A DNA stretch of 40,635 bases from a virus. Its lineage: Duplodnaviria; Heunggongvirae; Uroviricota; Caudoviricetes. Positions 1-33,022 of this stretch are shown here, piece after piece. A program made the position numbers and the translations under genes. Each line of letters starts with the position of its first letter. Positions within the stretch are counted from its first letter, which is position 1. The stretch lies in the IMG/VR virus record IMGVR_UViG_2541047850_000015, one strand, 5' to 3'. The notes under the pieces are model-generated. The model was given only the letters and a program-made list of their open reading frames with translations. It was not told where the DNA came from and ran no database searches.

Positions 1-70
1 GAGTCTTGAGTCTTGAGTCTTGAGTCTTGAGTCTTGAGTCTTGAGTCTTGAGTCTTGAGTCTTGAGTCTT
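1..70. repeat. Perfect tandem heptanucleotide repeat (GAGTCTT)x10 on plus strand (AAGACTC on minus), truncated by the window edge
   Basis: Directly visible: ten identical 7-nt units from position 1 to 70. Confidence 0.97.
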
Positions 71-75
71 GACAT
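1..75 (-). CDS. neuO: 5' end (partial) of leftward gene whose reading frame runs into the heptad repeats; neuO-like phase-variable polysialic acid O-acetyltransferase candidate
   Basis: Minus-strand ATG at about 73-75 preceded by AGGA about 8 nt upstream, reading ATG TCA AGA CTC AAG ACT C... into the repeats; position just downstream of an endosialidase tailspike matches the described CUS-3 neuO locus. Rest of gene is outside the window. Confidence 0.5.
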   Translation of the reverse strand, partial: MSRLKTQDSRLKTQDSRLKTQDSRL

Positions 76-228
76 GTTAGTATCCTACGTTATTTTACCA
101 CTAGTTACTTTTCTTGTCATTAAAAAGCATTTAAATTTTTATATTTAATTTCGTTGACGTCAATGTTTTTTGCCAATGTACTTACTTCTTTATGTGAGCA
201 GTTCATATTTTTGACGCCAACGAAACAT

Positions 229-3174
229 TTAGTGCTTCCCTTCTATTAAGTCTAACCTAGCTTTTATTCTTTCTATTTCTCTGCGCTGCCATGCCGCCTC
301 GATATAGAATAAGAGATCAGGTCTGACCCCCCATCTAGATCCTGCTGGCGTTATTTCAACGCGCTCAATGATGTCTTCTATTACCATCACTGGATTATCA
401 TCCTCATCAACAATGATGCTCCCGTCATTATCAGTCAGCGGCATTTCCCTTTGGCCAGTAATGACGTCATCATATACTGCGGGATAATCGTCATAGCAAA
501 GAAAGGCATAGCGGCATGTTGTGCTTTCTTCTTCCATGAGTCCGTGAGAAATAAGAACATCACGAAGTTGCTGCGCGATTACACCATGATGTATCCTCGC
601 CCCTTCTTCCCCCTTTATAGCGACAGCGTTCAGCCATTTATAAGCGATATACCTGACGTCACCCCAGGCATCCAGCAATGCTTCGTCAGGAGAGACCGGC
701 TCTGTCTTTAATGTTCCGTCACTGGTAACCACAGGATTGGAGCCAAGATAAACTGTCGAGAACCTGTTTCCCGGACCACCAAGAGCATTTACATTATCAA
801 GATAAGGTTTAACATCTCCGTTCTCAAAAAGATGTTCGAGTGCGTTATATACCGCGCGACGTGGAGTACTGCTTCCGGAACCATGCAACGTTATCATTGC
901 ACCATCTGCTGAAGACGTTGTTTCACCGCCGCTAACGATTAATCTCTGAGCGGTAACATCATCAGACGGTACTTTCTTCGCAATAATGGCGTAATTACCC
1001 TCAAGTTTGACTTCCGCGCGAACTTGTCCTGATGTACCTGCATGGACAGTCAGTGACTGGACGGCAACATCATCTGTGAAATCAACGGGTACAGGAACCG
1101 TCCTCACGCCTGACGTCGACATAAAAGTAGGAAGCGTTCTGTTAGGAGTGGCTCCGTAGACAAAATCCCTTGAAACAAATTCTTCCTGTTTAATTTTCAC
1201 CCTGAAACAATACAAATCAGCCGGGTGACCATCGTGAACATAAGGATATTTTCTGTTGTTATCCCCTATGCTCCATGGGTTTAGAAAATCTTCCCCACCG
1301 AAAATGTAGTACAGCCAGTTGTCTTTGATACAAACTGAACCAACACCAACCGCAGAGTTAACTATTCCGCCCTGATAAATCTGATCAGTAACATTAACCC
1401 ACTCTACATTATCCAGACTCCACTCATTGACGTTAACTCTGGTCATAAATGTTCTTGGATAATTTCCTGCATAACGGTTATCAGGTTCTCCTCCTTCCCA
1501 CTCACCAAATGCGCGCTCACTGCCAAAAATAACCAGCTCATCGCCAACTTTGGCAAAAGGAAGGTTTGAGTGATGAACATTATTTGGGAAGCGAAGAGAA
1601 TTCCATGATGTACCTAAATCAGAGCTTCTGTGCAATGAACTACCGGGTTGAGTACTTAATGTCCCCCTGGTCGTCAGATACAGAATGCCATCATAATATT
1701 TTACACATGGCTCAGATGCATTCGCCTCATATTCTGCAGGTATGCGTCTGCGAACAAAGCTACCAGGAGAACCGAAAGCATCAGAGAAATAGAGTATCCC
1801 AAGCTCGCGTGGACCAATATCACCATTATGGTAGCCAACAGCAAAACTGTTATCGCTAATCGTCGCAAAACTGTGAATCTCAGTAACAGGAGTGCTTCCG
1901 TCAACAAAAGAAGGAATAGTTCCAAGACTGGTTTTTCTCCATGGTGACGAGTGAAATGATGTGCCAAAACTCCAGTATCTACCCTCGTTATTCTGATCCA
2001 CATCCTGGGTATTTTGCGTCGTAACTGTAAAGGTATTTTTATCAATAACAGTAGTCACCGTCATATTCCCGGTAACATCTGTAACACCAGAGTTTGAGAA
2101 GTTGACAAAATCACCAGCAAATAATCCGTGATCAGTAATGCGAATATAAGCGACTTGCTGATTTGCTGCTTTCGTTATACCACCATAAACGCGAAGGCTG
2201 CGACTCATTGGGCGATCCCACAACTCTGCAACCTGCAGTTTATTTCCTCTCACGGTCCGCGTCTCAATTACAGCAAAAAGGCGATTTCTGACAACCCCCA
2301 TACTCATGCAGTGATAGTTAACTGTGGGATAGTTTTCATGTAAATCTGTAAGCCATTCCGGCGTTGTCCAGGTCTTCCCGTCATCTCCTGAGCGAACCCA
2401 TGCAACATGGAGGTTATTTACACCATGGCGGTCTCCAGCCATAAAAGGCGCATAGATGACATTGTCATATACAAACGTTTTATCCTGCGTCCAGGCGTTG
2501 TACCACGGTGTATCTGTAATTTTAAATAACTCTCCCTGGATAAAATCTTCAGAAGCATAAAAAAGAGGCTGACCCGGTATTCTCTCAAATAAAAAACGAG
2601 CATTTTTAAATCGACTGACATCTGGAAGAGTTGATACTTTAAAAGTAAGCCCTCGCCCATCTATCTTTTCACCACCTGTTGCAACAGAAAGTAATTCTGA
2701 TAGAGCTGATGTATCATCATGAACACCATCACCAATAGCCCCCCAACCTCTTACATCATAACTGTCTCTCCATCTTGCTATCTGAAGTTTTGGGTATTTA
2801 TTCGCTCCATCTGGGTCTTCTAATTGCTGCCGTAGTTGATCTGGGTCATACTTCAGCACATTAGGAAAATAGAACTGCTGCGCACCATACGCATCATAAA
2901 CAGCCATAGAATGGCCTTGCACGGTAACGAATTTGGCAATCTGTCCGTTATATACAGGATATCCAGCAGCGTTAATGATGATTGGTTGAGAAACAGGAAC
3001 GTGAGAACCGTCTTCGTTCTCCACATAAGCCTGAATCTGGTTTTCAGGATTTACAGGGTCAGTATCAATTTTACCGATATAAATTTTGCCATTAGCTACG
3101 GCTTTAAAAGAACGCGCCATAGTGAAGAGTTGCGAAGGCATCGATACAATCACATTGGCTGTAATGTCTGTCAT
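229..3174 (-). CDS. Tailspike: P22 gp9-type N-terminal head-binding domain fused to an endo-N-acetylneuraminidase (endosialidase) domain with C-terminal intramolecular chaperone domain
   Basis: N-terminus [10 protein letters not shown]...[11 protein letters not shown]...VLKYDPDQ closely resembles P22 gp9 N-terminus; two Asp-box motifs ([16 protein letters not shown]) typical of sialidase beta-propellers; C-terminal about 150 aa resembles the self-cleaving chaperone domain of K1F/K5 tailspikes. Confidence 0.85.
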
Positions 3175-3232
3175 TTAATTTGCTCCAGATACAAGGAATC
3201 GCCGAAGCATGGCTACGGTGAATTTTGGGCAT

Positions 3233-3258
3233 AAAAAAACCCAGCCGAAGCTGGGTCG
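3233..3258 (-). terminator. Rho-independent terminator downstream of ant (CCCAGC-TTCG-GCTGGG followed by T-run on minus strand)
   Basis: GC hairpin plus run of 7 T on the minus strand between ant stop and tailspike start. Confidence 0.6.
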
Positions 3259-3296
3259 TTGCGTTGGTTATTGACCTACACTTTTCGTGCAGGTAG

Positions 3297-4220
3297 TTAA
3301 AGTTTTATTGAGTGGCACGCTCTATCACGTATCGCTGCGAATGAAGCTATCTCTTTAAGTGCCCAGCTTTGCTCAGCCATTAAATGGCGAAGTGCTTTTA
3401 GTTCAGCTCTTACTGCTGAAACGTCATACCCCGCTTTTGTCAGAATATTGATTAGTTTATACGCCGGACTGCATTCAACGAGTGCGCTGCGGTCAAGAGC
3501 AACAGTATCACCGCATTGCTGCCTGATAATGGCGTAAGGTGCATTTTCAGCAAACCATGAAATCGGGAAGTTAATATCCAGTTTTGGCGCTGGTAACTCT
3601 TCTTGTTTGCCAATGAACTCACCTTCAAGTGGAACTCGAGCTGCAAGTGACAGTGCTTCGGTGAACTGCTCCTCACTGATTTCTTTGTACGAACATCCAA
3701 AATGGGATTTCAGTGAGGACCACATGGTGATCATCGCCTTAGCCTGTTTTTCTTTTGGCAGAGACTGACCGCGACTCATGACGAGTTGTTTAATGGCTTC
3801 CTGCTGTTCAGTGGTGATTTTACCCGGCAACGCCTTTTTAGCTTTGCGTGGGTTAACTACATGACCTTTAGTCCAGTACTCGTATAGCACATCGTCACAC
3901 TCTTCCTGATACTGGATTACCTTGTCGCGGATTTCAGGACGGACTTTGTTTGGCTGAATGCTTGAAAGCCAAGCCGCAAACTTACGAAAGGCAAGGCATA
4001 TCATTAACTGTTTACCGCCAGCAGAAGGTATTTCGATTTCCGAAATACCTTTGACAAATCTCTGTTTTAATTTAACAAATTGAGCAGCCCAAACCATACC
4101 CATGCCTTCTACAACGGGTTTCATAGGAACGTAAGGTTCATTGTTAATGCTGACCAAAAAGAGATTTGTTCCGTGGAATGGAACGTTGATTGTATGTTCT
4201 GCAATTGCTACACTCGTCAT
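3297..4220 (-). CDS. ant: Antirepressor Ant (P22 Ant-like, AntA N-terminal domain plus KilAC-like C-terminal region)
   Basis: 307 aa, position downstream of arc in immI, size and organisation like P22 Ant (300 aa). Confidence 0.8.
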   Translation of the reverse strand: MTSVAIAEHTINVPFHGTNLFLVSINNEPYVPMKPVVEGMGMVWAAQFVKLKQRFVKGISEIEIPSAGGKQLMICLAFRKFAAWLSSIQPNKVRPEIRDKVIQYQEECDDVLYEYWTKGHVVNPRKAKKALPGKITTEQQEAIKQLVMSRGQSLPKEKQAKAMITMWSSLKSHFGCSYKEISEEQFTEALSLAARVPLEGEFIGKQEELPAPKLDINFPISWFAENAPYAIIRQQCGDTVALDRSALVECSPAYKLINILTKAGYDVSAVRAELKALRHLMAEQSWALKEIASFAAIRDRACHSIKL

Positions 4221-4283
4221 GTCGTTAATTCCTATGCGTGGTTTTACGATACCGAAGCCCTGACTGTTACCGCAGTTGGGGCT

Positions 4284-4505
4284 TCACTGTTTTTGTAAGT
4301 CACTGTAGCTATAAAGCCACTGACCACTCATTTTTGATTTGATTGACTCTACTGAATCACGGCAAGGAATGATTCCGCCTGACATCATTCTGATCTCCGT
4401 AAATTCACCACTCCTTATCGATTCAATGCCATCAATGTTAACTAAAGATTTACCTCTACCAAGTGCATTCTCATAGCCAATCTCATCAACCTCAATAAAC
4501 CTCAT
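4284..4505 (-). CDS. Hypothetical 73-aa protein inserted between arc and ant, start overlaps arc stop (ATGA)
   Basis: ORF in track; GAGGGG upstream; translational coupling to arc. No recognisable family. Confidence 0.45.
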   Translation of the reverse strand: MRFIEVDEIGYENALGRGKSLVNIDGIESIRSGEFTEIRMMSGGIIPCRDSVESIKSKMSGQWLYSYSDLQKQ

Positions 4506-4660
4506 ACCGTTATCCCCTCTCTCTTCAGGCTGTCCAACACTCGCTTGTAAATCTCAGAGTTAACAGATCGCCCGTTCTCTTCCGCCACCTTACGCACCAA
4601 ATCCAATACTTCTTTAGGCCACCGCAAATTGAACTGCGGCATTTTGCTCATTCCTTTCAT
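4502..4660 (-). CDS. arc: Arc repressor (ribbon-helix-helix)
   Basis: MKGMSKMPQFNLRWPKEVLDLVRKVAEENGRSVNSEIY... is near-identical to P22 Arc; start moved to internal ATG (about 4660) because upstream ORF-track extension would cover the operators. Confidence 0.92.
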   Translation of the reverse strand: MKGMSKMPQFNLRWPKEVLDLVRKVAEENGRSVNSEIYKRVLDSLKREGITV

Positions 4661-4674
4661 ATTTACCTCACAAT

Positions 4675-4723
4675 ATAGGTCCACCGTGGACCTATTGAGA
4701 ATATAGTAGAGTGCTTCTATCAT
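4675..4723. promoter_or_regulatory. immI control region: Mnt operator palindrome (about 4675-4695, TAGGTCCACCGTGGACCTA) and Arc operator (about 4703-4723, ATAGTAGAGTGCTTCTATCAT) with divergent Pant/Pmnt promoters
   Basis: Perfect 19-bp palindrome seen in sequence; second site matches the P22 arc operator as I remember it; located between divergent arc and mnt starts. Confidence 0.8.
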
Positions 4724-4750
4724 GTCAATACACTAACTTGGGGTGATGGC

Positions 4751-5005
4751 ATGGCTAGAAACGATCCGCACTTTAACTTCCGTATGCCTTTGGAAGTAAG
4801 AGAAAAATTGAAATTAAGAGCAGAGGCTAACGGAAGGTCAATGAACTCTGAGTTATTACAAATCGTTCAGGATGCTCTCTCAAAGCCATCACCGATTGCA
4901 GGCTATCGAGACGAAGCTGAACGCTTGGCTGATCAGCAAGCAGAGCAGTTCAAGGCCGTTGTGTTTGAGACACTTAAAAAGATTTATGGCAAGGATGATA
5001 AATAA
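4751..5005 (+). CDS. mnt: Mnt repressor
   Basis: MARNDPHFNFRMPLEVREKLKLRAEANGRSMNSELLQIVQDALSKPSP... is near-identical to P22 Mnt. Confidence 0.92.
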   Translation: MARNDPHFNFRMPLEVREKLKLRAEANGRSMNSELLQIVQDALSKPSPIAGYRDEAERLADQQAEQFKAVVFETLKKIYGKDDK

Positions 5006-5541
5006 TGCTGCACACAATTCATTTCTTATGCCCCGTTAACACTGCCACTGTTGGGCAACTTCAGAACCACTGTCTCACCGCATTATCTCAAGGCGCAACT
5101 GAATTAAATATCCATATATCAAGTCAGGGAGGGGAAACTGCCGCTGGCTTTACTGCGTATAACTTTCTTAAGTCACTCCCTGTTACCGTTAGAACTCACA
5201 ACATAAGCAATGTTGAATCCATAGCTAATATCGTTTTCCTGGCTGGCTCAGAACGTTTCGCAAACCCATTATCAAGATTCCTGTTACATCCTCTATTATG
5301 GTGCTTTGCCTCCCCAGCCGCCGACCATGCCAGATTGAGAGAGTACGGGAAATGCCTCGATAACGATCTTGATCGCTTCGTTGAGACGTTCAATATCGAC
5401 ATCGGAACCCATATTAGGTGGGCATCCCTGATAGCAGACTCGACCATTTTGGATGCTAACAAGGCTCTTGAGCATGGCATAATTAATTCCATAAAAACCG
5501 CAAGGCTGGCATCCAATCAGGCAAACTGGTGGGTTGTTTGA
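5005..5541 (+). CDS. ClpP-like serine protease-domain protein (178 aa), translationally coupled to mnt (TAATG overlap)
   Basis: Alignable by eye with ClpP: ISSQGGETAAGFTAY / VSTIC..S..A / RF..P.SR...H; candidate Ser-His-Asp triad positions retained (ESIAN, LLHPL, ADSTILDA). Not in the head module. Confidence 0.55.
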   Translation: MLHTIHFLCPVNTATVGQLQNHCLTALSQGATELNIHISSQGGETAAGFTAYNFLKSLPVTVRTHNISNVESIANIVFLAGSERFANPLSRFLLHPLLWCFASPAADHARLREYGKCLDNDLDRFVETFNIDIGTHIRWASLIADSTILDANKALEHGIINSIKTARLASNQANWWVV

Positions 5542-5566
5542 TGGGTAAATCATGAATACTCCTTAT

Positions 5567-5597
5567 AAAAAACCCGCGATTAAGCGGGTTTGATTAG
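5567..5597. terminator. Bidirectional hairpin terminator between convergent ClpP-like gene and ORF6N gene (CCCGC-GATTAA-GCGGG flanked by A/T runs)
   Basis: Hairpin with T-rich tracts on both strands in the 75-nt convergent intergenic gap. Confidence 0.5.
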
Positions 5598-5616
5598 CAA
5601 TAATCTATCCTTTTGG

Positions 5617-6474
5617 TTAAAAAAGTTTTCGAAGATCTACGCCATACACAGCAAGCCAAGCATCGCGAGGCCATGACTTAACTGAGCCAAAGCGTGGGTC
5701 GTTGACATCATGTGGGGTGACGTCATTCTCCCGGCACCACTTGCGAAGAGGCTGCCATTTGAATTTCTGCCCCAGCTTCTTTTCTACCGGGATAATGGCG
5801 GCGTAGTTCTTTCCTTCCCCTACCCGTTCAGCTAATTTGTTTTTGGCGCGGACGGCTGCTGATGCGGTAGCCATTGCTGTAGCTTCGCGTTTTGCTGCAA
5901 TCCACAACTTTTCTTTTACCGCTCTGTCGCGCTGTTGCTCAAGAAGCCGATTCTCTTTGACCTTTAGAAGTAAATCTTCCAGAGCCTGCTCGTATGTCTG
6001 CGGTAGGATGCTTTTTACCAAGGGACGGAAGTAAGCATTTTCCAACCGTTCGAAGAAAGACCATGCTTCGTCTGTATCGACAATTTTCGACATCCGCGCT
6101 GCGCCCTTCTCCGTCCACAAAACAATTGAACGAGCTTTGTTCGAAATTTGTGCGTGACTATTAGTCACTCGCAAATTCTTCAACTCTTGGCCTTTAATAG
6201 TGAAGATGTGAATTCCTTCAATGAAGCGTCCAGCATTGCGTGACAGGTTTTTCCGAATGTTAGCCTCATCCGTACCATAACCTGAAGCCAGCGTTTCAGT
6301 CGTAACAACACGTAAACCCTCCCATTCAATCACTGGAAGCGGCTGGGGATCGACATTTGGCTCATGAACTGCTAAATTTAATAAAGTCATTGGTTGGACC
6401 CTTATGACAAGTTTCAATGAAAGCCGGTAGCTCGTAACTGTCGGCTTTTCTTTTTGCACCGTCCTGTGCGTCAA
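5617..6474 (-). CDS. Antirepressor-like protein with ORF6N-type N-terminal domain
   Basis: Motif LPVIEWEGLRVVTTETLASGYGTDEANIRKNLSRNAGRFIEGIHIFTIKGQEL typical of ORF6N domain; track start is TTG, an alternative ATG lies about 6390. Confidence 0.6.
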   Translation of the reverse strand: MTHRTVQKEKPTVTSYRLSLKLVIRVQPMTLLNLAVHEPNVDPQPLPVIEWEGLRVVTTETLASGYGTDEANIRKNLSRNAGRFIEGIHIFTIKGQELKNLRVTNSHAQISNKARSIVLWTEKGAARMSKIVDTDEAWSFFERLENAYFRPLVKSILPQTYEQALEDLLLKVKENRLLEQQRDRAVKEKLWIAAKREATAMATASAAVRAKNKLAERVGEGKNYAAIIPVEKKLGQKFKWQPLRKWCRENDVTPHDVNDPRFGSVKSWPRDAWLAVYGVDLRKLF

Positions 6475-7206
6475 TCAGTGAATCCATTCCTCACCGCGAA
6501 GCATTGCCAACATTGGCTGCGCATGCTTCACGACAATATTGCTGTTATCCAGTTCCTGTACTTCACGAAGCAGGATCTTCTTGGTTTCCACAGTCATATA
6601 ACGAATGTCGTGGGCGATGTCGTATAGCATCCCTGCGTATTCTGACTTAGCCTGTTTCATTGCCGGGTAAAGTTGCTGGCTAACCCGCTGGCTCTTTTCC
6701 ATCCAGAGCTGGAGATAGCAAAGGCTGATTAACTCATCATCTGTGAACTGTTTGGCGATCGGTGAATCCGTGGCTTCACGATCCAAAATATCCAGCACCC
6801 AACGGCGGAACTCTTTGGCCTTGGGCGTAGAAGCAAACATCGCCACCAAGTGAGCGCCTCGGAGTGAGTAAACTCTGACCGATTTGTTACGTAAGCTATT
6901 GTTTATCCCGTTGACACTCATATTGAGGGTCAATGACATTGAGTCGGAAAACTCATCAGCATTACGGGCATAAATTTGGCTGATGGCATCAGTTTTTTTA
7001 TAGCCGAGAGCCTTAGCTAGTTCGGTGGAGGTAAACCAGATAGACCCGCCCTCTGTTACTGGGTTAAAGGTGAATCCTTGGAAGTTGTAATCTGATTTTG
7101 CTACAATATTCATATCGATATTTCCGTCGTAGGATTTGTTCGATACCGAAGCCTGACGGTCTAGCCACCGTTGGGCTTCAACGTTTTTAATGGATGATAA
7201 TTTCAC
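6475..7206 (-). CDS. Bro-N domain antirepressor-like protein (probable true start at ATG about 7113)
   Basis: FTSTELAKALGY...VRVYSLRGAHLVAMFASTPKAKEFRRWVLDIL matches Bro-N domain; track start is GTG at 7206 and would overlap the upstream small ORF. Confidence 0.6.
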   Translation of the reverse strand: MKLSSIKNVEAQRWLDRQASVSNKSYDGNIDMNIVAKSDYNFQGFTFNPVTEGGSIWFTSTELAKALGYKKTDAISQIYARNADEFSDSMSLTLNMSVNGINNSLRNKSVRVYSLRGAHLVAMFASTPKAKEFRRWVLDILDREATDSPIAKQFTDDELISLCYLQLWMEKSQRVSQQLYPAMKQAKSEYAGMLYDIAHDIRYMTVETKKILLREVQELDNSNIVVKHAQPMLAMLRGEEWIH

Positions 7207-7360
7207 CTTTCTTCTCCATATCCATGACCTTAGCCATAAAGAAATCGATCATCCCCTGAGTCGAGCGGTAGCTTTTAGCTGCGTTACTTTCCAAAAACTC
7301 ACGCACTTCAGCACTTGGGCGGTAGGAGATAGGCTTGATATCTTTTTTCTTCTGTTCCAT
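7187..7360 (-). CDS. Small 57-aa protein, predicted ribbon-helix-helix-like regulator (first gene of the antirepressor operon)
   Basis: Hand-translated MEQKKKDIKPISYRPSAEVREFLESNAAKSY...; GAGGTG RBS 5 nt upstream of ATG; strand-helix-helix pattern by eye. Below ORF-track size cut-off. Confidence 0.4.
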   Translation of the reverse strand: MEQKKKDIKPISYRPSAEVREFLESNAAKSYRSTQGMIDFFMAKVMDMEKKGEIIIH

Positions 7361-7457
7361 TATTCACCTCATGTAGTTTTGTTATTCAATTGCTCAATCT
7401 TCAACATTAGGTTAGTACCAGACTAATATTGAGTCAATGATTTTTTAAGGTGCAAAT
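7361..7457. promoter_or_regulatory. Divergent promoter/operator region of accessory switch; imperfect inverted repeat CAATTGCTCAAT ... TATTGAGTCAATG
   Basis: 97-bp gap between divergent starts; inverted repeat seen by eye. Confidence 0.35.
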
Positions 7458-8318
7458 ATGAGTTTTGATGATTCTTTTTCTAAACGAGTTGCCATAGCGC
7501 GCAACTCCATCGGTTTGACTCAATCCGAGCTTGCTAAGAAAGTAGGCGTGGTATCCAGACAGATCGCTGCTTACGAGGGCGGGGAAGCCAAGCCAAGAGA
7601 AAAGGCACTTCAAAACCTTGCGGCTGCATTGGGAACTACCACTGAATGGCTTACGCAAGGGAAAGGAGATGGCCCTGACGTTAGCAGTGTCAAGAGAACT
7701 GTTACTGTGCGCGAGATTCCTGTGCTAACACACGTACAGGCAAGATTTGAATCGCTAGATGATTTACTAAAGACTGCTGCTATAAAGGACTTTATTCCAG
7801 CCCCTCCTGAAGCCAATGAATACTGTTTTGCCGTTGAAATACAAGGAGACTCCATGTCTTCCGGTGATGGGATTAGCTTTCCTCCTGGAACAATCGTAAC
7901 TTTCGATTCATCGCTAGAGGCTGTTTCTGGTGACTTTGTGATGTGTGTGCTGAATGATGATTCTGAGGCTACATTTAAGCAGCTTATACTGGATCAGCGC
8001 CAAATCTACCTTAAGCCACTTAACCCTTTATACCCTATGTTCCAACCTGATTTTATCGAGGTTGTTGGCGTGGCTATTCATTCTCAGTTCCGAATAAAGA
8101 GGGAAAAACTTATCTCTCCAATGCCGCATAGCGAAGTAGAGAAACTGGTTGAAGAAGCACACAAGGTTAGCCAAGATTTTTGGTCAAATGCAAAATTTGA
8201 CAAGAATACACCCTTTGACGAACGTCTTAAGCGACTAGATGAAATTGCTGAGCGCCTTGAGAAATTTGCTAACTACAGCCTTTCACAGGCCCGTTATAAA
8301 CACTCACCAGACAAGTAA
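7458..8318 (+). CDS. cI/LexA-like repressor: N-terminal HTH (XRE) plus S24 peptidase domain with about 75-aa C-terminal helical extension
   Basis: HTH segment GLTQSELAKKVGVVSRQIAAYEGG; S24 motifs GDSM and FKQL...KPLNP; AAGGTG RBS. Confidence 0.7.
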   Translation: MSFDDSFSKRVAIARNSIGLTQSELAKKVGVVSRQIAAYEGGEAKPREKALQNLAAALGTTTEWLTQGKGDGPDVSSVKRTVTVREIPVLTHVQARFESLDDLLKTAAIKDFIPAPPEANEYCFAVEIQGDSMSSGDGISFPPGTIVTFDSSLEAVSGDFVMCVLNDDSEATFKQLILDQRQIYLKPLNPLYPMFQPDFIEVVGVAIHSQFRIKREKLISPMPHSEVEKLVEEAHKVSQDFWSNAKFDKNTPFDERLKRLDEIAERLEKFANYSLSQARYKHSPDK

Positions 8319-8402
8319 TAAGCACAAAATCACTTAACCAACCCGGGTAGGCTGCGCTCCCTTGAGTCACATGGTATCCTGCACAAAACTAAGGAGGTTG
8401 GT

Positions 8403-24696: not shown

Positions 24697-25003
24697 CTTC
24701 TACTCCGGCTTTTTTAGCAGCGAAGCGTTTGATAAGCGAACCAATCGAGTCAGTACCGATGTAGCCGATGAACACGCTCGTTATATAAGCGAGATTGCTA
24801 CTTAGTCCGGCGAAGTCGAGAAGGTCACGAATGAACCAGGCGATAATGGCGCACATCGTTGCGTCGATTACTGTTTTTGTAAACGCACCGCCATTATATC
24901 TGCCGCGAAGGTACGCCATTGCAAACGCAAGGATTGCCCCGATGCCTTGTTCCTTTGCCGCGAGAATGGCGGCTAACAGGTCATGTTTTTCTGGCATCTT
25001 CAT
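24680..25003 (-). CDS. S: Holin, lambda S-type
   Basis: [64 protein letters not shown]... near-identical to lambda S. Confidence 0.93.
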
Positions 25004-25401
25004 GTCTTACCCCCAATAAGGGGATTTGCTCTATTTAATTAGGAATAAGGTCGATTACTGATAGAACAAATCCAGGCTACTGTGTTTAGTAATCAGATTT
25101 GTTCGTGACCGATATGCACGGGCAAAACGGCAGGAGGTTGTTAGCGCGACCTCCTGCCACCCGCTTTCACGAAGGTCATGTGTAGAAGGCCGCAGCATAA
25201 CTATCACTGATGAATTCAGGATAGCCAGTGGCTACGGCTCAGTTTGGGTTGTGCTGTTGCTGGGCGGCGATGACGCCTGTACGCATTTGGTGATCCGGTT
25301 CTGCTTCCGGCATTCGCTTAATTCAGCACAACGGAAAGAGCACTCGGTGCATTTAAGACAAGCTCCATAAGGGAGAATGCTCTTACCTGTTACACAGATA
25401 T

Positions 25402-25461
25402 AAAAAATCCCGAAACCGTTATGCAGGCTCTAACTATTACCTGCGAACTGTTTCGGGATTG
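25402..25461 (-). terminator. tR'-like terminator ending the short late leader (6S RNA-like) transcript
   Basis: Minus strand CCCGAAAC...GTTTCGGG followed by ATTTTTTAT, in the position and form of lambda tR'. Confidence 0.75.
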
Positions 25462-25600
25462 CATTTTACAGACCTCTCAGCCTGCGATGGTTGGAGTTCC
25501 AGACGATACGTCGAAGTGACCAACTAGGCGGAATCGGTAGTAAGCGCCGCCTCTTTTCATCTCACTACCACAACGAGCGAATTAACCCATCGTTGGGGCA

Positions 25601-25629
25601 AATTTACCCAACTTTATTCAAAAAGTCAA
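25601..25629 (-). promoter_or_regulatory. Late promoter pR' (TTGACT-17 bp-TAAATT) with downstream qut region
   Basis: Minus-strand TTGACTttttgaataaagttgggTAAATT immediately downstream of Q stop. Confidence 0.75.
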
Positions 25630-25671
25630 TATCATGCCGTTAATATGTTGCCATCCGTGGCAATCATGCTG

Positions 25672-26295
25672 CTAACGTGTGACCGCATTCAAAATGTTGT
25701 CTGCGATTGACTCTTCTTTGTGGCATTGCACCACCAGAGCGTCATACAGCGGCTTAACAGTGCGTGACCATGTGGGTTGGGTAAGGTTGGGGATTAGCAT
25801 CGTTACAGCGCGATATGCGGCGCTTGCTGGCATCCTTGAATAGCCGACGCCTTTGCATCTTCCACACTCTTTCTCAACAACTCTCCCCCACTGCTCTGTT
25901 TTGGCAATATCAACCGCACGGCCTGTACCGTGGCAATCTCTGCATCTTGCGCCCGGCGTCGCGGCACTACGGCAATAATCCGCATAAGCGAATGTTGCGA
26001 GCACTTGCAGTACCTTTGCCTTAGTATTTCCTTCGAGCTTTGCCACACCACGATATTTCCCCGATACCTTGTGTGCAAATTGCATCAGATAGTTGATAGC
26101 CTTTTGTTTGTCATTCTGGCTGAGTTCGTGCTTGCCGCAGAATGCAGCCATACCGAATCCGGCTTGTGATTGCGCCATCCCCATAGCAGCCATCACATCA
26201 GTACCGGAAAGAGAGTCAGAAGCCGTAGCCCGTGGTGAGTCACTCATCATTGGGCTTTTTGGCGAATGAAATTTAGCTACGCTTTCGAGTCTCAT
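25672..26295 (-). CDS. Q: Late antiterminator Q (lambda Q-like)
   Basis: 207 aa MRLESVAKFHSPKSPMMSDSPRATASDSLSG... near-identical to lambda Q. Confidence 0.93.
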   Translation of the reverse strand: MRLESVAKFHSPKSPMMSDSPRATASDSLSGTDVMAAMGMAQSQAGFGMAAFCGKHELSQNDKQKAINYLMQFAHKVSGKYRGVAKLEGNTKAKVLQVLATFAYADYCRSAATPGARCRDCHGTGRAVDIAKTEQWGRVVEKECGRCKGVGYSRMPASAAYRAVTMLIPNLTQPTWSRTVKPLYDALVVQCHKEESIADNILNAVTR

Positions 26296-26480
26296 GGCCT
26301 TCCCCTTTTGCCCTGTTTGACCATCAGGACGCCGTTAACTATTACGTGACGCTCGCCTTTGCTGTCTCGGTTGTACTTGAGCACTGTTCCTCTTGCGCAG
26401 GAAAGCATCCTTGCCACTTCGGTCTGATTGCCTCGTGTCTGGATAAGAAGCTCTGGTATCGTTTGAATTGTGGCGTTCAT
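26292..26480 (-). CDS. NinH-like small DNA-binding protein
   Basis: 62 aa with HTH-like GNQTEVARMLSCARGTVLKY; immediately upstream of Q. Confidence 0.5.
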   Translation of the reverse strand: MNATIQTIPELLIQTRGNQTEVARMLSCARGTVLKYNRDSKGERHVIVNGVLMVKQGKRGRP

Positions 26481-26839
26481 GCGTTCTCCAGTTCGGTGAT
26501 TTTTATTCCAAGCCTTCCGCCTGGTACTTTCACGCCACGAATTACGCGAATGTCATCGAATTGCTCGTCGTCTTCCGCAAATCCGGCGTGGATAAGGGAG
26601 TCGAGTAAACCTTTCAGGATGTTGTCGAGGTCGCGACGGCGGGAGTCCGGAACGTCTGCGATGACTTTGATACGGAGTCGTGATTTGGTGAAAATGTCTA
26701 ACTTGAGTTGGCGGATGATTTGCTGAACGTCTTTTCGGTATTTCTGGCCTTTGTCGCTTATGTAATATTGGCTTCCCCGTCTTCGCCAGTAGGTATTCAC
26801 CGACGGCGGGTATGGGAGCACAAACTGATATTCGTTCAT
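26477..26839 (-). CDS. rusA: Holliday junction resolvase RusA
   Basis: 120 aa; N-terminus FVLPYPPSVNTYW and acidic C-terminal region typical of RusA family. Confidence 0.8.
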   Translation of the reverse strand: MNEYQFVLPYPPSVNTYWRRRGSQYYISDKGQKYRKDVQQIIRQLKLDIFTKSRLRIKVIADVPDSRRRDLDNILKGLLDSLIHAGFAEDDEQFDDIRVIRGVKVPGGRLGIKITELENA

Positions 26840-27126
26840 GACTTAATCTTCCCCTCCTTCAGCAGTATCGCCTGCGTCCTGATCACGCCTTCGAGGTGGT
26901 AAAGTCTGGCGTCTTTGTTGTCGAGATTATGGGTGCGTCGGTCGATTTCATCGTGACACGCGCTACAAGCCCATGCGCCGATCAGGTCGTCAGGCTTCAT
27001 TCCCGTTCCGCAAATTCCAGCCATCCGGTAATGTGCCAGAACTGTAGTTTCAGGATTGCCATTGCATACGCCGTAAATACGTACCTGGCATTCTCTGCCG
27101 CGCGCTTCTTTGCGTAGGTTAGCCAT
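26836..27126 (-). CDS. YbcO-like (DUF1364) Cys-rich putative nuclease of the nin region
   Basis: 96 aa with Cys cluster (CQVRIYGVCNG...CGTGMKPDD...CSACHDEID), position between ninE-like region and rusA. Confidence 0.5.
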   Translation of the reverse strand: MANLRKEARGRECQVRIYGVCNGNPETTVLAHYRMAGICGTGMKPDDLIGAWACSACHDEIDRRTHNLDNKDARLYHLEGVIRTQAILLKEGKIKS

Positions 27127-27331
27127 TTACCTTCCCTCGCAATTGAAGAATTGACTGAAGGTCTTTTTTAATAAATATGCGAGTGCGAATTGAGCAGTAG
27201 TTTTCCTTCATTCTGGCGTAGTAATAGTCTTTTCTTTGCTTAAGCTTGTTGGCATCCGCTGTCATCCAGTCTTTTACAGCAAACTTAATTAACCAGCGGT
27301 GGCAGAGATACCATTTCAGGTAATCACTCAT
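27119..27331 (-). CDS. Hypothetical 70-aa nin-region protein
   Basis: ORF in track; start overlaps NinF stop. Confidence 0.4.
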   Translation of the reverse strand: MSDYLKWYLCHRWLIKFAVKDWMTADANKLKQRKDYYYARMKENYCSIRTRIFIKKDLQSILQLRGKVNG

Positions 27332-27500
27332 CGTCTTCTTCCTCGTACATTGAGCTATTCGGATCGCTCATCAGTTCTGCGCAGCAGTGCTCACACACGT
27401 GAACTTCCAGCACATGCAGCTTCTGACCGCAGTTAGCGCACGTTAAAGCTCGCTCGACGCTTTCTTTCTGGTATTGAATGGATTGGGATGGGCTAAGCAT
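27324..27500 (-). CDS. ninF: NinF
   Basis: Hand-translated [58 protein letters not shown], matching lambda NinF as I remember it. Below ORF-track cut-off. Confidence 0.7.
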   Translation of the reverse strand: MLSPSQSIQYQKESVERALTCANCGQKLHVLEVHVCEHCCAELMSDPNSSMYEEEDDE

Positions 27501-27858
27501 TATTGGCGTCCTGCATCATGAGAAAGACAATCATGGCAGCGCGGAGTGGGTTTTCATCTTGAGTCATATGATATGGGGTACTATCACCGCCAACTTTTCT
27601 ATGCGCTGCCTTCCATAATCCATTTTCTGGTGCTGGAATAATTCCAATTCTGTTCTCTACGATAATCGGCTCTGCGTCTGATGGGCTTTTACAGTAATCA
27701 ACCGTTTTTATTGCATAACCAGTTTCGTCATCCCACTCAACACCAACGATTGATGTTCCCAACTTTGCGATTTCGCAATCTTCGGGAGCAAATCCACAGC
27801 AAATTGCCACTCGCTTGTTAATTTCAAAATCACTTAACTGTGAATAATCCATTGTCAT
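27493..27858 (-). CDS. NinX-like protein (start moved to ATG overlapping NinE stop)
   Basis: Position between ninE and ninF as in P22 ninX; identity by synteny only. Confidence 0.45.
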
Positions 27859-28028
27859 TTCCTCGCACGATGTCTTAGCCACCGGATATCCCACAGGTGA
27901 GCCGTGTAATTGAAGGTTTTTACGTCAGATTCTTTTGGGATTGGCTTGCGTTTATTTCTGGAGCGTTTCGTTGGAAGGTATTTGCAGTTTTCGCAGATGA
28001 TGTCGGTGATACTTCGTCGCTGTCGCAT
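27855..28028 (-). CDS. ninE: NinE
   Basis: [57 protein letters not shown] resembles lambda NinE; track ORF extended upstream. Confidence 0.7.
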
Positions 28029-28555
28029 CATGCCGCTCTCCTGACGCCCCGCCCGATCGTCATCAATGTCGCTTTGGATACGGTAGTAAACATCCGTCGA
28101 GGACTGATGAACGGTCGCCAAATCAGCAGCATGGAACCTTTGCTGTTTCCCTTCTTCTCCAACCCTGTCGATGGTTCGATAAAATTAATCCGTCCATCAG
28201 TAATGATGCGAACTTCGTCAACACTCTCCAGAGCCTTGCTGAACCATCCGACAGACATATCCTCTGGCACAAGCATCACTATCGTCTGTCGCTGTTGTAT
28301 GCACTGCTCAGCGGCTTTTTCCACCCACGGCCTGATATTGCTGTACGGTGGGTTATTCCAGATTGCACCGTGGCTTTCCCACTCAGAATTGAGCGCGTCG
28401 TCGGCCTCAGTTAGCCAGTGAGCACACAGAGCATTTTTGTCGCTCGCTGCCGAATCCAGCCAGAATCCAAACTCAATATCCAGTGCATCAAAAAGCCAAA
28501 GCGGCGTTTGCCAGCAGTCCTTGTCGTGTGCTGGCGTATTTGATTTGATAGTCAT
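28028..28555 (-). CDS. DNA N6-adenine methyltransferase (phage Dam-type)
   Basis: NPPY motif (IWNNPPYSN); probable start [18 protein letters not shown]... overlapping NinB stop (ATGA). Confidence 0.7.
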
Positions 28556-28992
28556 GCTGCCCGATCTCCCCATCGCGTTTTCCATTCGAGAGCCAGTCGC
28601 GCTTCGTCTGACCACTTAACGCCACGCTCTGTACCGAATGCCTGTATAAGCTCTAATAGCTCCGCAAATTCGTTTACACGCATCCTGCTGGTTGACTGGC
28701 CTATTACCACAAAGCCATTCCCGGCAAGGTTAGGAACAACGTCCTGCTGCTTTAATGCTGCGGTAAACACACACTTCCAGCTTTCTGCATCCAGCCAGCG
28801 ACCATGCCATTCAACCTGACGAGAGACGTCACCAAGGCAAGCCCAAAGCTTTCGATTCTGGTCTAAGCTGCGGTTGCGTTCCTGAATGGTTACTACGATT
28901 GGTTTGGTTGGGTCTGGAAGAATTTGCTGTACCGCGTGAATAGCGTTTTGCTGATGTGCTGGAGATCGAATTTCAAAGATTAGTTTTTTCAT
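28552..28992 (-). CDS. ninB: NinB (Orf-family recombination mediator)
   Basis: MKKLIFEIRSPAHQQNAIHAVQQILPDPTKPIVVTIQERNRSLDQNRKLWACLGD... near-identical to lambda NinB; start moved to MKKL. Confidence 0.88.
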   Translation of the reverse strand: MKKLIFEIRSPAHQQNAIHAVQQILPDPTKPIVVTIQERNRSLDQNRKLWACLGDVSRQVEWHGRWLDAESWKCVFTAALKQQDVVPNLAGNGFVVIGQSTSRMRVNEFAELLELIQAFGTERGVKWSDEARLALEWKTRWGDRAA

Positions 28993-29068
28993 GACTTCCC
29001 TCTCCCCCAAATAAAAAGGCCTGCGATTACCAGCAGGCCTGTTATTAGCTCAGTGATGTAGATGGTCA

Positions 29069-30520
29069 TCAGAATCCTCCTTTCTTCTTGGACTGCGGTT
29101 CCTCGCGTTCACGGCGGCGCATTTCAGCAGACTGTTGGTCTGTGTCATAAATAGCGCCATTTGCCTGAATGCAATACACCGTGCCGGTATTGCCATGACG
29201 ATTGAGACGAAGGATTAGTTCGGTTTCACCAGGTGGAACACTGTCATCAAAAGCACCTTCACGATGGATCCCCACCCAATAATCGCAATCCTGTTCAATC
29301 TGCCCTGTATCTCGTGAGTCACTTGGTAATGGGCGTTTATTGGTTCGGCTTTCCAGTGCGCGGTTAAGCTGTGTCAGAAGCACAACAACGCAATCAAGCT
29401 CTTTGGCAAGGTTCTTCAGTCCTTTGGTGATCATGCCGTAAGCAAGGTCGTTGCGATCGGCCTTTTCAGCGGTCATTAGTGTCAGGTAATCGACCAGAAT
29501 CATGCCAACACATCCTTTTTCTCGCTTGATTCGACGGCTTTCGCTGACGATTTGAGCCAGAGATAATCCCGGCGTGTCGTCGATGTAAAGCATGTCGATT
29601 TCACTCAAGCGATTGGCTGTTTCGATCGCCCTGTTGAAGTCACCATCGTAATCACCCTGATAGCCGTCATCGGCGTCATTTGTCGCCGGAAGGTAAAAAA
29701 TATTCGGGTTAACACCAGACTTCTGCCCTACCAGTTTTTCCAGTATCTGATCACCTGGCATTTCAAGGCTGAACATCAATGCGGGCTTTTTCTCATGCAC
29801 TGCGCAATTGATTGCCATCTGGCTGTATAGCGTCGTTTTCCCCATCTTAGGGCGAGCGCCAATGACAAACAGAGAGCCTTTCACCAGACCTTTCGGTGAC
29901 AGCATCCTGTCCAGCGATGGGATCCCTGTGCTCATTCCTCGTTGTTCGCCTGACGGGTCAAATCGCTTCTCAAGGTCGCTAACCCAGTCTTCCATGACCT
30001 CACCAAATGAGCGAAGGCCGCGACGCGATCCGGTTTTTGCATGGTCTGTCAGTTGCGTGAAAATCGCCTGAATAGCTTCGTACTTCTGCGTTGCAGTCAT
30101 TCCGTTGCGGGAATAGAGCAATTCCGTCGCTTCAGTCATGCGGTTGATGGCGTAGCGTTCCATTGCGGTTTCACGAACCTGCATTGCATAGGCAACGATG
30201 TTTGCGGCGCTTGGCGTGTTCTTTGCGATCTCAGCGATATAAGCAAAACCGCCAACAGACGCCGTTAACGATTTACGCTCCAGTTCATCGAAAAGCGTCA
30301 GGCCATCTACTGGCTTTTGCTCCCGGTGCATTCTGGTTATTTCTTCGAAAAGGATTTTGTGTGGCCGGCTGTAAAATGAGTCAGGCTTCAGCATCGCCAG
30401 AACTTTCTGGACGCGCTCACTGCTGTCATCATCCAGAAGCAATCCACCAATCACCGCCTGCTCTGCCTCGATGCTATGGGGCGGCGCATAAAAATTATCG
30501 GTCATCGTGTTCACCCTCAC
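29069..30520 (-). CDS. Replicative DNA helicase (DnaB family, P22 gp12-like)
   Basis: Walker A GARPKMGKTT, DnaB-type N- and C-terminal regions; overlaps upstream initiator stop. Confidence 0.88.
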   Translation of the reverse strand: MRVNTMTDNFYAPPHSIEAEQAVIGGLLLDDDSSERVQKVLAMLKPDSFYSRPHKILFEEITRMHREQKPVDGLTLFDELERKSLTASVGGFAYIAEIAKNTPSAANIVAYAMQVRETAMERYAINRMTEATELLYSRNGMTATQKYEAIQAIFTQLTDHAKTGSRRGLRSFGEVMEDWVSDLEKRFDPSGEQRGMSTGIPSLDRMLSPKGLVKGSLFVIGARPKMGKTTLYSQMAINCAVHEKKPALMFSLEMPGDQILEKLVGQKSGVNPNIFYLPATNDADDGYQGDYDGDFNRAIETANRLSEIDMLYIDDTPGLSLAQIVSESRRIKREKGCVGMILVDYLTLMTAEKADRNDLAYGMITKGLKNLAKELDCVVVLLTQLNRALESRTNKRPLPSDSRDTGQIEQDCDYWVGIHREGAFDDSVPPGETELILRLNRHGNTGTVYCIQANGAIYDTDQQSAEMRRREREEPQSKKKGGF

Positions 30521-31385
30521 GAACTTTCAGGTAGGTATTATCGTTAAGCAGGAAATCAAATCCCTTTTTGTGCCAGACGGTTCCGCGTTGATGGTTTGTG
30601 CGCTCTTCGAACATCCATCGGCAATTTTCGCCAACGTAGCTCAAATAATTTCTCCAGTCCTGCATCGTGAACCCATGCCCGTCAAGCTGGCGGGTTATCA
30701 CTCCGGCTTTGCGCCAGAACGTTCGGATCTGGTTTTTACGCTTGTCATTCAGTGCGCGGATTCTTGGCGCTTCAGGAAGGATTTCGTGGTAAGCATCGAC
30801 AACATCCTGACAGCTAACGGAAGGTTTTTTCTTGTCAGACTTTTTGTCTGCTGTGGCACTCTCTAATACGTCAGTATTAGAGATATTATTTATATTATTG
30901 TTTATGGACAACCGTTGGACAACCGTTGGACAATCTCCGCTGAGAGCCGCGCCATTACTGGTGTTTGCGTTGGACAACCGTTGGACAACCGTTGGACAAT
31001 TTTTTGCCTGAAAATCGTCATATTTAACGATTGTAAACAGGCTAAATTTCTTCCCCATCGAGCAAATATTAAGCATACCTTTCGACTCAAAAGTCCGTAA
31101 TAAGCTCCGAACTTTGTTGTCGGGGATGAATGTTTCTCTGACCAGCGACGGGCGTCCAGTTATCATCTGACCGCGATCAACAGTTATCGGACCGATATCC
31201 GTATTGACGACAGTAGATTCGTGATTAGCCTTGAGGATTAAGTGAAGCCAAAGATGTACTGCCTGAGAGTCCTTATAGAGCCTGCTGTCCATAAACTGGC
31301 GGTGTATAGAGACATACCCCATACTGGATGCCTCCTGATGTTGTACAGGGTTATGCCTGTAATCAGCTAACTTAACGACGCCCAT
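30495..31385 (-). CDS. Replication initiator (O-like / replisome organiser) containing the origin iterons; probable true start at internal ATG about 31321 with AGGAGG RBS
   Basis: Position between cII and helicase; internal DNA repeats produce repeated peptide CPTVVQRLSN; start ambiguity noted. Confidence 0.75.
   Translation of the reverse strand: MGVVKLADYRHNPVQHQEASSMGYVSIHRQFMDSRLYKDSQAVHLWLHLILKANHESTVVNTDIGPITVDRGQMITGRPSLVRETFIPDNKVRSLLRTFESKGMLNICSMGKKFSLFTIVKYDDFQAKNCPTVVQRLSNANTSNGAALSGDCPTVVQRLSINNNINNISNTDVLESATADKKSDKKKPSVSCQDVVDAYHEILPEAPRIRALNDKRKNQIRTFWRKAGVITRQLDGHGFTMQDWRNYLSYVGENCRWMFEERTNHQRGTVWHKKGFDFLLNDNTYLKVREGEHDDR
30870..31000. repeat. Origin-like iteron cluster: about six direct copies of an 11-bp unit (TGGACAACCGT) in two blocks plus adjacent AT-rich tract, inside the initiator gene
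   Basis: Seen directly at about 30905-30932 and 30971-31000; AT-rich segment about 30871-30900. Confidence 0.75.
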
Positions 31386-31533
31386 GTTTCACTCCTGCTT
31401 TGGCTAGTCTGTAAACACCAACAAGGCGCTCTGCGAACGCCCTGTTATTTGCTGCGGCTACCACTAATCCCTCAGGTGAATCAGGGTGTCGAATCTCTTC
31501 TTTTTCCTGGTATTTCTTACGACGTTTTGTCAT
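31372..31533 (-). CDS. Small basic 53-aa ORF between cII and initiator (hypothetical)
   Basis: Hand-translated MTKRRKKYQEKEEIRHPDSPEGLVVAAANNRAFAERLVGVYRLAKAGVKHGRR; AGGAG RBS 5 nt upstream. Confidence 0.3.
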   Translation of the reverse strand: MTKRRKKYQEKEEIRHPDSPEGLVVAAANNRAFAERLVGVYRLAKAGVKHGRR

Positions 31534-31565
31534 AATGACTCCTGTGGATTGATCCAGTAATTACC

Positions 31566-31865
31566 TCAGAATTCCATCTGGATTTGTTCAGAACGCTCGG
31601 TCTTGCACACCGGGCGTTTTTTATTGGTGAGTCCATCAAGCGCATACTTAAAAGCCCTGCTAATCGGACTGATGTCTGATGCCATTCCGAAAGCACACAA
31701 GACCGAAGCAATAAATCTCCAGTCCGTTCTGCTTATCTTCGATTCATGACATCCAATCATCTTTGCCAGACCGCGCTGGGTAAGCGTTGACAGGTTGATG
31801 AGTAAATCTGTTTCTGCGCGATCAACGTCGCGCTGTGATAGTTTGCTGTAACTTGTTTGTTCCAT
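31566..31865 (-). CDS. cII: CII transcriptional activator
   Basis: C-terminus ...LTNKKRPVCKTERSEQIQMEF matches lambda CII tail; HTH segment present. Confidence 0.85.
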   Translation of the reverse strand: MEQTSYSKLSQRDVDRAETDLLINLSTLTQRGLAKMIGCHESKISRTDWRFIASVLCAFGMASDISPISRAFKYALDGLTNKKRPVCKTERSEQIQMEF

Positions 31866-31929
31866 TTCTTACTATTTCCATAGGTAAATAATCACTAATA
31901 CTCATCTTTCGATGAGTGATTAATTAGTT

Positions 31930-31963
31930 ACCGCGTTGTCGGCGGTGCAGATTGATAAAGAGC
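31930..31963 (-). promoter_or_regulatory. nutR (boxA CGCTCTTTATC and boxB hairpin ACCGCCGACAACGCGGT on minus strand)
   Basis: boxA-like element followed by boxB stem-loop between cro and cII, as in P22 nutR. Confidence 0.7.
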
Positions 31964-31974
31964 GGATCCGCTTA

Positions 31975-32190
31975 TTAAGCGGCTTTGTGTTCCGGTGGGA
32001 ACACGTCATCAAGACTGACTTTTGCGCCTAACTTGTTTAGGCACGCAACAAGAGCACGGCATGTTTTAAGGTCTGGGAAGCGACGACCAGATTCCCAATG
32101 TCCGATAGCTCCCTGTGTGCATCCAACCGCCTTAGCAAGTGTTGTTTGAGAGATATTCAGTGACTCTCGATATTTTCGTAGGTTGCTCAT
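31975..32190 (-). CDS. cro: Cro-like repressor (HTH, 71 aa)
   Basis: MSNLRKYRESLNISQTTLAKAVGCTQGAIGHWESGRRFP...; GGAGGG RBS; recognition helix TQGAIGHW mirrors that of the divergent cI (TQGGIGHW). Confidence 0.8.
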   Translation of the reverse strand: MSNLRKYRESLNISQTTLAKAVGCTQGAIGHWESGRRFPDLKTCRALVACLNKLGAKVSLDDVFPPEHKAA

Positions 32191-32307
32191 ATGCCCTCCA
32201 TAGTAACCATGAAACAATAATACGATATGTACTTTTGGAATGCAAACAAAAAATACATCTTGTGCATGGATGGTTTTAGTACAGAGCGTAATAATAAGGA
32301 TATGAAA
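32191..32307. promoter_or_regulatory. OR region with divergent pR/pRM promoters and operators (individual operator sites not resolved)
   Basis: 117-bp AT-rich gap between divergent cro and cI starts. Confidence 0.6.
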
Positions 32308-32961
32308 ATGAAATGGTATGAACTGGCTAGATCCAGAATGAAAGAACTCGGCATAACTCAAGAGAAGTTAGCTGAAGAGCTTGGTATGACGCAGGGTGGA
32401 ATTGGTCACTGGTTGCGCGGATCTCGTCATCCATCTCTTGACGAGATTGGTGTGGTGTTTAAATACCTTGGTATTGATAACGTCTCATTCAACCACGACG
32501 GTACATTTTCACCTGTTGGCGAATACTCATCTGCCCCGTTAAAAAAACAATATGAGTACCCTGTTTTTTCTCATGTTCAGGCCGGGATGTTCTCGCCTGA
32601 GCTTAGAACCTTTACCAAAGGCGATGCGGAGAGATGGGTCAGCACAACCAAAAAAGCCAGTGATTGTGCGTTTTGGCTTGAAGTTGAAGGTAATTCCATG
32701 ACCGCACCAACAGGATCCAAGCCAAGCTTTCCTGACGGGATGTTAATTCTCGTTGACCCTGAGCAGACTGTTGAGCCAGGTGATTTCTGCATAGCCAGAC
32801 TTGGTGGTGACGAGTTTACCTTCAAGAAACTGATCAGGGATAGCGGTCAGGTGTTCCTACAACCACTAAACCCGCAATATCCAATGATCCCATGCAATGA
32901 TAGCTGTTCCGTAGTAGGGAAAGTTATCGCCAGCCAGTGGCCTGAAGAGACATTTAGTTAA
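32308..32961 (+). CDS. cI: Prophage repressor cI (P22 C2-like, HTH plus S24 autopeptidase domain)
   Basis: C-terminal domain [13 protein letters not shown]...[28 protein letters not shown] resembles P22 C2; start chosen at second ATG (MKWYEL) with AAGGA spacing; track start 32227 is probably too long. Confidence 0.88.
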
Positions 32962-32992
32962 CAGCCTCACCACTCTAAAACACACAACAATA

Positions 32993-33022
32993 ACCCGACC
33001 TTAGCGTCGGGTTTTCTTTTTC
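32993..33022 (+). terminator. Rho-independent terminator after cI (CCCGACC-TTAGC-GTCGGG then T-run)
   Basis: Hairpin plus TTTTCTTTTT directly after cI stop. Confidence 0.75.

Follow-up and report, generated by a model that had tools for sequence, protein, structure and literature searches.

Which receptor is recognized by a tailspike that begins like that of phage P22 and continues like an endosialidase? The question is raised by a single gene at positions 229-3174 of the IMG/VR virus record IMGVR_UViG_2541047850_000015, a stretch of 40,635 nucleotides from a tailed virus (Caudoviricetes), which is called the window below. As judged from its sequence, the gene almost certainly encodes the receptor-destroying tailspike of a CUS-3-type prophage (P22-like, Lederbergvirus) of Escherichia coli K1. 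It marks the window as a K1-specific prophage of this type, the predicted receptor being the polysialic acid capsule. Three direct observations carry this reading: the near-identity of the gene to siaK1 of phage CUS-3, the domain content of the protein, and the conservation of its catalytic and cleavage residues.

The gene is one uninterrupted open reading frame of 981 codons on the minus strand, which starts with ATG and has its stop codon at 229-231. An initial annotation, made from the sequence alone, had these coordinates exactly right and left the strand unstated. In a megablast comparison with phage records, the full 2,946 nucleotides are 99.0% identical to siaK1 of Enterobacteria phage CUS-3 (CP000711; host E. 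coli RS218), the product of which is named 'endosialidase tailspike protein'. The GenBank note on siaK1 reads 'endo-alpha-sialidase activity, Evidence IDA, PMID 16689790'. The two proteins are equal in length and align without insertions or deletions, with 970 of the 981 residues (98.9%) identical. The codon changes relative to siaK1 comprise 17 that are synonymous and 11 that are non-synonymous. The resulting substitutions, written with the window residue first and the CUS-3 residue last, are P43T, A49V, P121T, A207V, R309S, D366G, V548I, G767R, T807I, A832T and I932M. None of them affects a residue that is mapped below to catalysis, cleavage or binding. The tailspike is not new. It represents an allele of a protein that has been characterised, and RefSeq contains the exact sequence of this allele as WP_021548176.1.

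The same protein is encoded in E. coli chromosomes. The gene is 100% identical in four of them, for example in that of the O16:H6 strain CU37RT-2 (NZ_CP082774.1). Among 5,426 complete genomes of E. coli, 181 contain 80% or more of the gene, and its carriers include the named K1 strains RS218, O7:K1 CE10 and APEC O18 as well as many 'serovar:K1' isolates. The gene has a different form in phiv205-1 (MN340231), a CUS-3-like prophage of an avian pathogenic E. coli (APEC) strain. There, an insertion with two transposase reading frames splits the tailspike gene after about nucleotide 207 (compared stretch L005, 844-6239), which leaves a 71-residue stub, called 'bifunctional tail protein', and, apart from it, a 'tail fiber protein'.

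The domain content of the 981-residue protein was examined by a Pfam hmmscan, which gives six matches, all far above the curated gathering cut-offs. The P22 tailspike N-terminal domain, the sialidase fold and the Peptidase_S74 domain that the initial annotation had led one to expect are all among them. At the very N-terminus, residues 1-113 (2836-3174; this and all other features of the protein are on the minus strand) align across the full 113-position model of Head_binding (PF09008; E 6.9e-66, 220 bits against a cut-off of 24), the domain of P22-type attachment to the tail hub. Further along the chain, four endosialidase models are matched from end to end, with 125-772 bits against cut-offs of 24-35. 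The endosialidase N-terminal extension, End_N_terminal (PF12218, E 7.6e-37), comprises residues 146-212 (2539-2739). It is followed by the six-bladed β-propeller catalytic domain, End_beta_propel (PF12217, E 1.4e-232, 771.6 bits), at residues 213-662 (1189-2538), in which the polysialic-acid-binding End_beta_barrel (PF12195, E 1.6e-45) is nested at residues 324-406 (1957-2205). The trimeric β-helix stalk, End_tail_spike (PF12219, E 7.4e-78), extends over residues 663-817 (724-1188). The generic BNR_2 sialidase model remains below threshold, as one would expect where dedicated endosialidase models account for the region. Directly after the triple β-helix stalk, residues 818-878 match Peptidase_S74 (PF13884, 'chaperone of endosialidase'; E 1.6e-10, 41.6 bits against a cut-off of 22).

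The comparison with structures gives the same picture. Residues 145-817 match the catalytic-fragment structures 1v0e and 3gvl of endoNF, the endosialidase of phage K1F, with E = 0. The identity to endoNF in 1v0e is 65% over 672 residues, and the alignment is interrupted by a single seven-residue insertion in the propeller, FVDGSTP (residues 423-429, window 1888-1908, minus strand). Residues 698-979 match 3gw6, the S911A variant of endoNF that contains the stalk and the chaperone domain, with E 6e-96. The proposed likeness of the C-terminus to the chaperone of K1F-type endosialidases is thus borne out along its whole length to residue 979. Taken together, PF13884, 3gw6 and the cleavage dyad described below predict a self-cleaving intramolecular chaperone at residues 818-981 (232-723). 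Two Asp-box motifs had been noticed in the centre of the protein, and a scan with the regular expression S-x-D-x-G-x-x-W finds exactly two, SGDDGKTW at residues 262-269 (window 2368-2391) and SSDLGTSW at residues 517-524 (1603-1626). A chance origin of the Asp-boxes or of the chaperone likeness was considered and is rejected by the E-values.

To convert the residue numbers of endoNF to those of the window protein, 100 is subtracted ahead of the FVDGSTP insertion and 93 beyond it. The K1F enzyme's residues for catalysis and substrate binding, H350, R549, E581, R596 and R647 (PMC12632334), then correspond to H250, R456, E488, R503 and R554, and all five are conserved. The supporting residues Q230, D231, H434, S435, K492 and N606 are likewise conserved. 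For autoproteolysis, endoNF uses the Ser-Lys dyad S911/K916 and the stalk residue R897, which completes the cleavage centre (PMC8326128); these are present as S818, K823 and R804. The mature chain in the endoNF crystal structure terminates at the residue aligned with T817, and the maturation cut is therefore predicted to fall between T817 and S818. The predicted products of this processing are a mature chain of 817 residues and a fragment of 164 residues. The conserved endoNF residues and the near-identity to siaK1 support the polysialic acid (K1) receptor that had been predicted for this protein. A broken or inactive gene was also considered, and is rejected in view of the intact reading frame, which has no frameshift, and of the catalytic residues, none of which is lost.

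The extent of the N-terminal anchor requires a correction. The first 110 residues or so had been described as closely following P22 gp9, and residues 1-117 do match this protein (8tvr, E 5e-52; also 1lkt, E 4e-46). However, residues 1-118 match Sf6 gp14 more closely (7sg7, E 1.5e-66), and P22 is a more distant relative of the N-domain than are Sf6 and other P22-like tailspikes of E. coli. The shared module also continues past residue 110. The tailspike of the P22-like phage Gally is 91% identical over residues 1-159, with an unrelated receptor-binding domain after that, and the similarity to K1F starts at residues 145-146. The N-terminal module therefore includes a linker or neck, residues 114-145 (2740-2835, minus strand). 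On these alignments the shared module runs to about residue 145-150, and the junction lies at a GAIGDG motif, at about residues 145-160. Matches to the same linker (residues 113-145, E 1.5e-7) and to the stalk-chaperone junction (residues 786-910, E 3.6e-34) are found in PDB entry 9vvr, an 843-residue 'tail spike protein'. This hints that yet another receptor-binding domain has been combined with the same neck and chaperone modules.

The flanks of the gene are those of a CUS-3-type prophage. A tie to a neuO-like locus had been proposed, and the poly-psi array of neuO, the gene for polysialate O-acetyltransferase, is indeed found immediately downstream of the tailspike. Only the margin of neuO lies within the window (1-75, minus strand): its ATG at 73-75 is followed by TC and by 10 AAGACTC heptads, which run off the window edge. 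This arrangement is the one described for neuO, in which the poly-psi array is inserted two nucleotides past the start codon (PMC3046976), and it aligns with the neuO region of CUS-3, which is annotated as poly-psi. The chromosome NZ_CP082774.1 contains 35 heptads at this place (compared stretch L002, 7105-7349). Under the published divisible-by-three rule for the heptad number (PMC13001214), neuO in this chromosome is in the phase-off state, because 35 is not divisible by three. This state fits the RefSeq annotation of the chromosome, which calls just a 336-nucleotide acyltransferase remnant at neuO. The space between the two genes contains a long imperfect inverted repeat, TTTCGTTGGCGTCAA ... 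TTGACGTCAACGAAA, at about 149-226 (minus strand), directly after the tailspike stop codon. Its folding z-score is -3.8 relative to shuffles, and it is located upstream of a neuO promoter-like site, ATGACA-17-TAAAAT, at 120-92.

On the other side, the tailspike is preceded by the antirepressor gene ant (3297-4220, minus strand). A terminator-like hairpin with an 8-bp GC-rich stem, a UUCG loop and a U7 run is positioned between ant and the tailspike start (3238-3257, minus strand), in a region that CUS-3 annotates as 'bsq1 boundary sequence'. The sequence GGAG is present 10 nucleotides upstream of the tailspike ATG. Gene 9 of P22 is expressed by antiterminated late transcription. By analogy, the hairpin probably terminates ant and has to be passed by late transcripts, as in P22, and the arrangement suggests that the tailspike is expressed by antiterminated late transcription in the manner of gene 9.

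Positions 1-7174 of the window are base-for-base identical to the CU37RT-2 chromosome, and its final 39 bases align with this chromosome where full collinearity would place them. In CU37RT-2 the tailspike is followed by the neuO (acyltransferase) remnant, intS and tRNA-Arg, at which the prophage sits. The far end of the window is just past torI, adjoining dsdC. From this gene order and the window ends, it follows that the window is a CUS-3-type prophage without the end that carries the integrase. A tRNA scan of the window found no tRNA gene, which is consistent with the window stopping before the attachment-site tRNA. The RefSeq annotation of the collinear genome lists P22-like virion genes for the portal, the gp4-family and gp10 stabilisation proteins, a major capsid protein of the P22 family, and the ejection proteins, and a complete P22-like set of morphogenesis, lysis, replication and immunity genes is annotated along the window. 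The phages closest to the window belong to Lederbergvirus. CP000711 covers 63% of window 1-25000, at 95% identity, and lambdoid phages of the HK106, mEp506 and vB_EcoP-683R2 type give the best matches to the early and replication region (25001-40635). By these comparisons the prophage and CUS-3 are mosaic relatives with different genomes.

Two further regions of the prophage deserve description. According to the RefSeq annotation of the collinear genome, the immI-like region (4284-8400) is expanded relative to that of P22. It contains two Arc/Mnt-family reading frames, a reading frame for a ClpP-like protease subunit (5005-5541, plus strand), an ORF6N-domain gene, an antirepressor-type gene with a P22AR C-terminal domain, and a LexA-family gene. 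At 30905-30999, within the gene next to a DnaB-like helicase, there are two adjoining arrays of an 11-bp direct repeat (TGGACAACCGT and CGTTGGACAAC), with 2.6 and 2.9 copies and 100% matches. These repeats look like origin iterons inside a replication-initiator gene.

If the enzymatic activity, trimerisation, cleavage and mode of transcription of the homologues are carried over to the window protein, the path of the tailspike from its gene to the host cell can be outlined as follows. Transcripts of the late operon would probably extend into the gene by reading through the upstream terminator. Three chains would fold with the aid of their C-terminal chaperone domains, which would nucleate the triple β-helix of the stalk. 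With R804 in place, the S818/K823 dyad would then cut each chain and free the 164-residue domain. The mature trimer would attach through its head-binding domains to a P22-type tail hub, the genes of which are within the window. Of the three modules of each chain, the first (residues 1 to about 145), the head-binding domain with its linker, would thus serve as the plug that fits the trimer into the hub. The second module (residues 146-817), an endosialidase of family GH58, would bind the K1 capsule's α-2,8-linked polysialic acid and cleave it endolytically. On a K1 cell, the sites in the barrel and the stalk would hold the polysialic acid while the active site of the propeller cuts it, and the cleavage of the capsule would carry the virion through to the outer membrane. 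In a lysogen, the phase-variable neuO directly downstream would O-acetylate the same polysaccharide.

Nothing substantive weighs against this description, but a few points qualify it. The allele differs at 11 residues from the CUS-3 protein that was assayed, and the lineage has the seven-residue propeller insertion relative to K1F. In the stalk, Met760 occupies the position of endoNF Q853, which we take to be a contact with polysialic acid. The K1 receptor is, moreover, predicted from the gene, and the window does not reveal the capsule type of the host. The lineage-specific insertion and the methionine could belong to an enzyme that has the endosialidase fold and a shifted substrate, so that O-acetylated polysialic acid is tolerated or even required, or α-2,9 or mixed linkages (K92) are cut. 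Such a substrate would match the neuO-modified capsule of the lysogens of the phage itself. The 35% divergence from endoNF across the enzyme region leaves room for a change of this kind. Deep mutational scanning of K1F indicates that loops of the stalk and the barrel tune host discrimination (PMC12632334), and O-acetylation is reported to reduce susceptibility to lytic K1 phages (PMC13001214). Nevertheless, every active-site residue is unchanged, the record of the almost identical CUS-3 enzyme notes an assay of endo-α-sialidase activity, and CUS-3 has been found specifically in K1 strains (PMC3046976). We therefore regard a shifted substrate as very improbable.

The gene could also be intact in sequence and yet be a relic in a defective prophage, either unused in virions or kept as a factor by which the host binds or trims its own capsule. 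Three observations favour this reading: an insertion sequence splits the tailspike gene of the related prophage phiv205-1, neuO is phase-off, with its 35 heptads, in the identical genome, and the window is a mosaic in which CUS-3 accounts for just 63% of the first 25 kb. The gene itself is full-length, however, it retains all functional residues, and its differences from CUS-3 are mostly synonymous (17 against 11). Since genes for P22-like morphogenesis, lysis, replication and immunity are also annotated in full, we consider it extremely unlikely that the tailspike is a relic. A functional K1 tailspike of the CUS-3 type remains by far the best account of the locus.

The identification is useful for annotation, as the polysialic acid capsule is that of neuroinvasive and uropathogenic E. 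coli, and endosialidases of this kind serve as probes for polysialic acid and as candidate anti-capsule therapeutics. A bolder proposal, to which we would give little credence, is that the enzyme of the CUS-3 lineage, this allele included, is adapted to the O-acetylated K1 capsule made by its own neuO. The seven-residue propeller insertion, the methionine at the endoNF Q853 position and the 11 residues that set this allele apart from the reference protein may be the adaptive features. If this were true, the tailspike and neuO would be a matched pair, in which one partner modifies the receptor and the other recognizes the modified receptor, and neuO would not merely exclude K1 phages. In addition, the 99.5%-identical cassette of an epsilon15-like phage, described below, would mark a very recent transfer between podovirus genera.

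The closest known system is SiaK1 (endoN) of CUS-3 (ABQ88383.1; Stummeyer et al. 2006, PMID 16689790; King et al. 2007, PMID 17601779). The flanks of the two genes are alike, with ant upstream and with neuO and its poly-psi array, followed by the integrase, downstream, while the rest of the window prophage is a mosaic relative to the CUS-3 genome. CUS-3 occurs specifically in K1 strains, and the same tailspike architecture has been described for it (PMC3046976). With endoNF, the gp17 protein of the T7-like coliphage K1F (1v0e, 3gvl, 3gw6), the window tailspike shares the catalytic module, the stalk and the chaperone. K1F has an N-terminal adaptor of the T7 tail-fibre type where the window tailspike has the P22 head-binding domain (PMC5380687). 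In addition, endoNF lacks the FVDGSTP insertion, and its distal chaperone domain differs in length. With the tailspikes of P22 (gp9), Sf6 (gp14) and HK620, the window tailspike has the head-binding domain (residues 1-113) in common, and the position of its gene downstream of the immI (ant/mnt/arc) region is the same as in P22-like podoviruses. The receptor-binding part of the P22, Sf6 and HK620 proteins is, in contrast, a right-handed β-helix O-antigen endoglycosidase without a released chaperone domain, whereas the window tailspike has the GH58 propeller and the Peptidase S74 domain.

Horizontal exchange of receptor-binding modules, as proposed for this gene, is the correct interpretation and also a textbook example (PMC5380687). 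The same review describes the N-terminal domain as conserved among the tailspikes of CUS-3, HK620, Sf6 and P22, CUS-3's catalytic domain as an endosialidase common to K1F, and the N-terminus of K1F as being of the T7 type. In its passage on these proteins, which cites Stummeyer et al. 2006, the pattern is said to 'clearly demonstrate[s] evolution through horizontal transfer'. The chimera and its reading as module exchange have been in print since 2006, and reviews have repeated them. The combination of a P22 anchor, an endosialidase and a self-cleaving chaperone is thus a published case, and conceptually nothing new.

The exchange continues in vB_EcoP_ZX5 (MW722083, QTH80017.1), a temperate, epsilon15-like Uetakevirus, the tail fibre of which has the same endosialidase and chaperone cassette. 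The cassette is 99.5% identical in DNA over tailspike nucleotides 522-2914 (residues 174-971; compared stretch L004, 2542-5661). The N-terminus of the ZX5 fibre, about 190 residues long, is unrelated to that of the window tailspike, and its last 10 residues also differ. The authors of vB_EcoP_ZX5 assigned this N-terminus to the T7-like tail-fibre type and had already noted the endosialidase domains (PMC9782041). The crossover points, at residues 174 and 971, are inside the coding sequence and away from the domain borders. Their position and the 99.5% identity therefore point to a recent recombination between two endosialidase genes that belonged to different podovirus genera.

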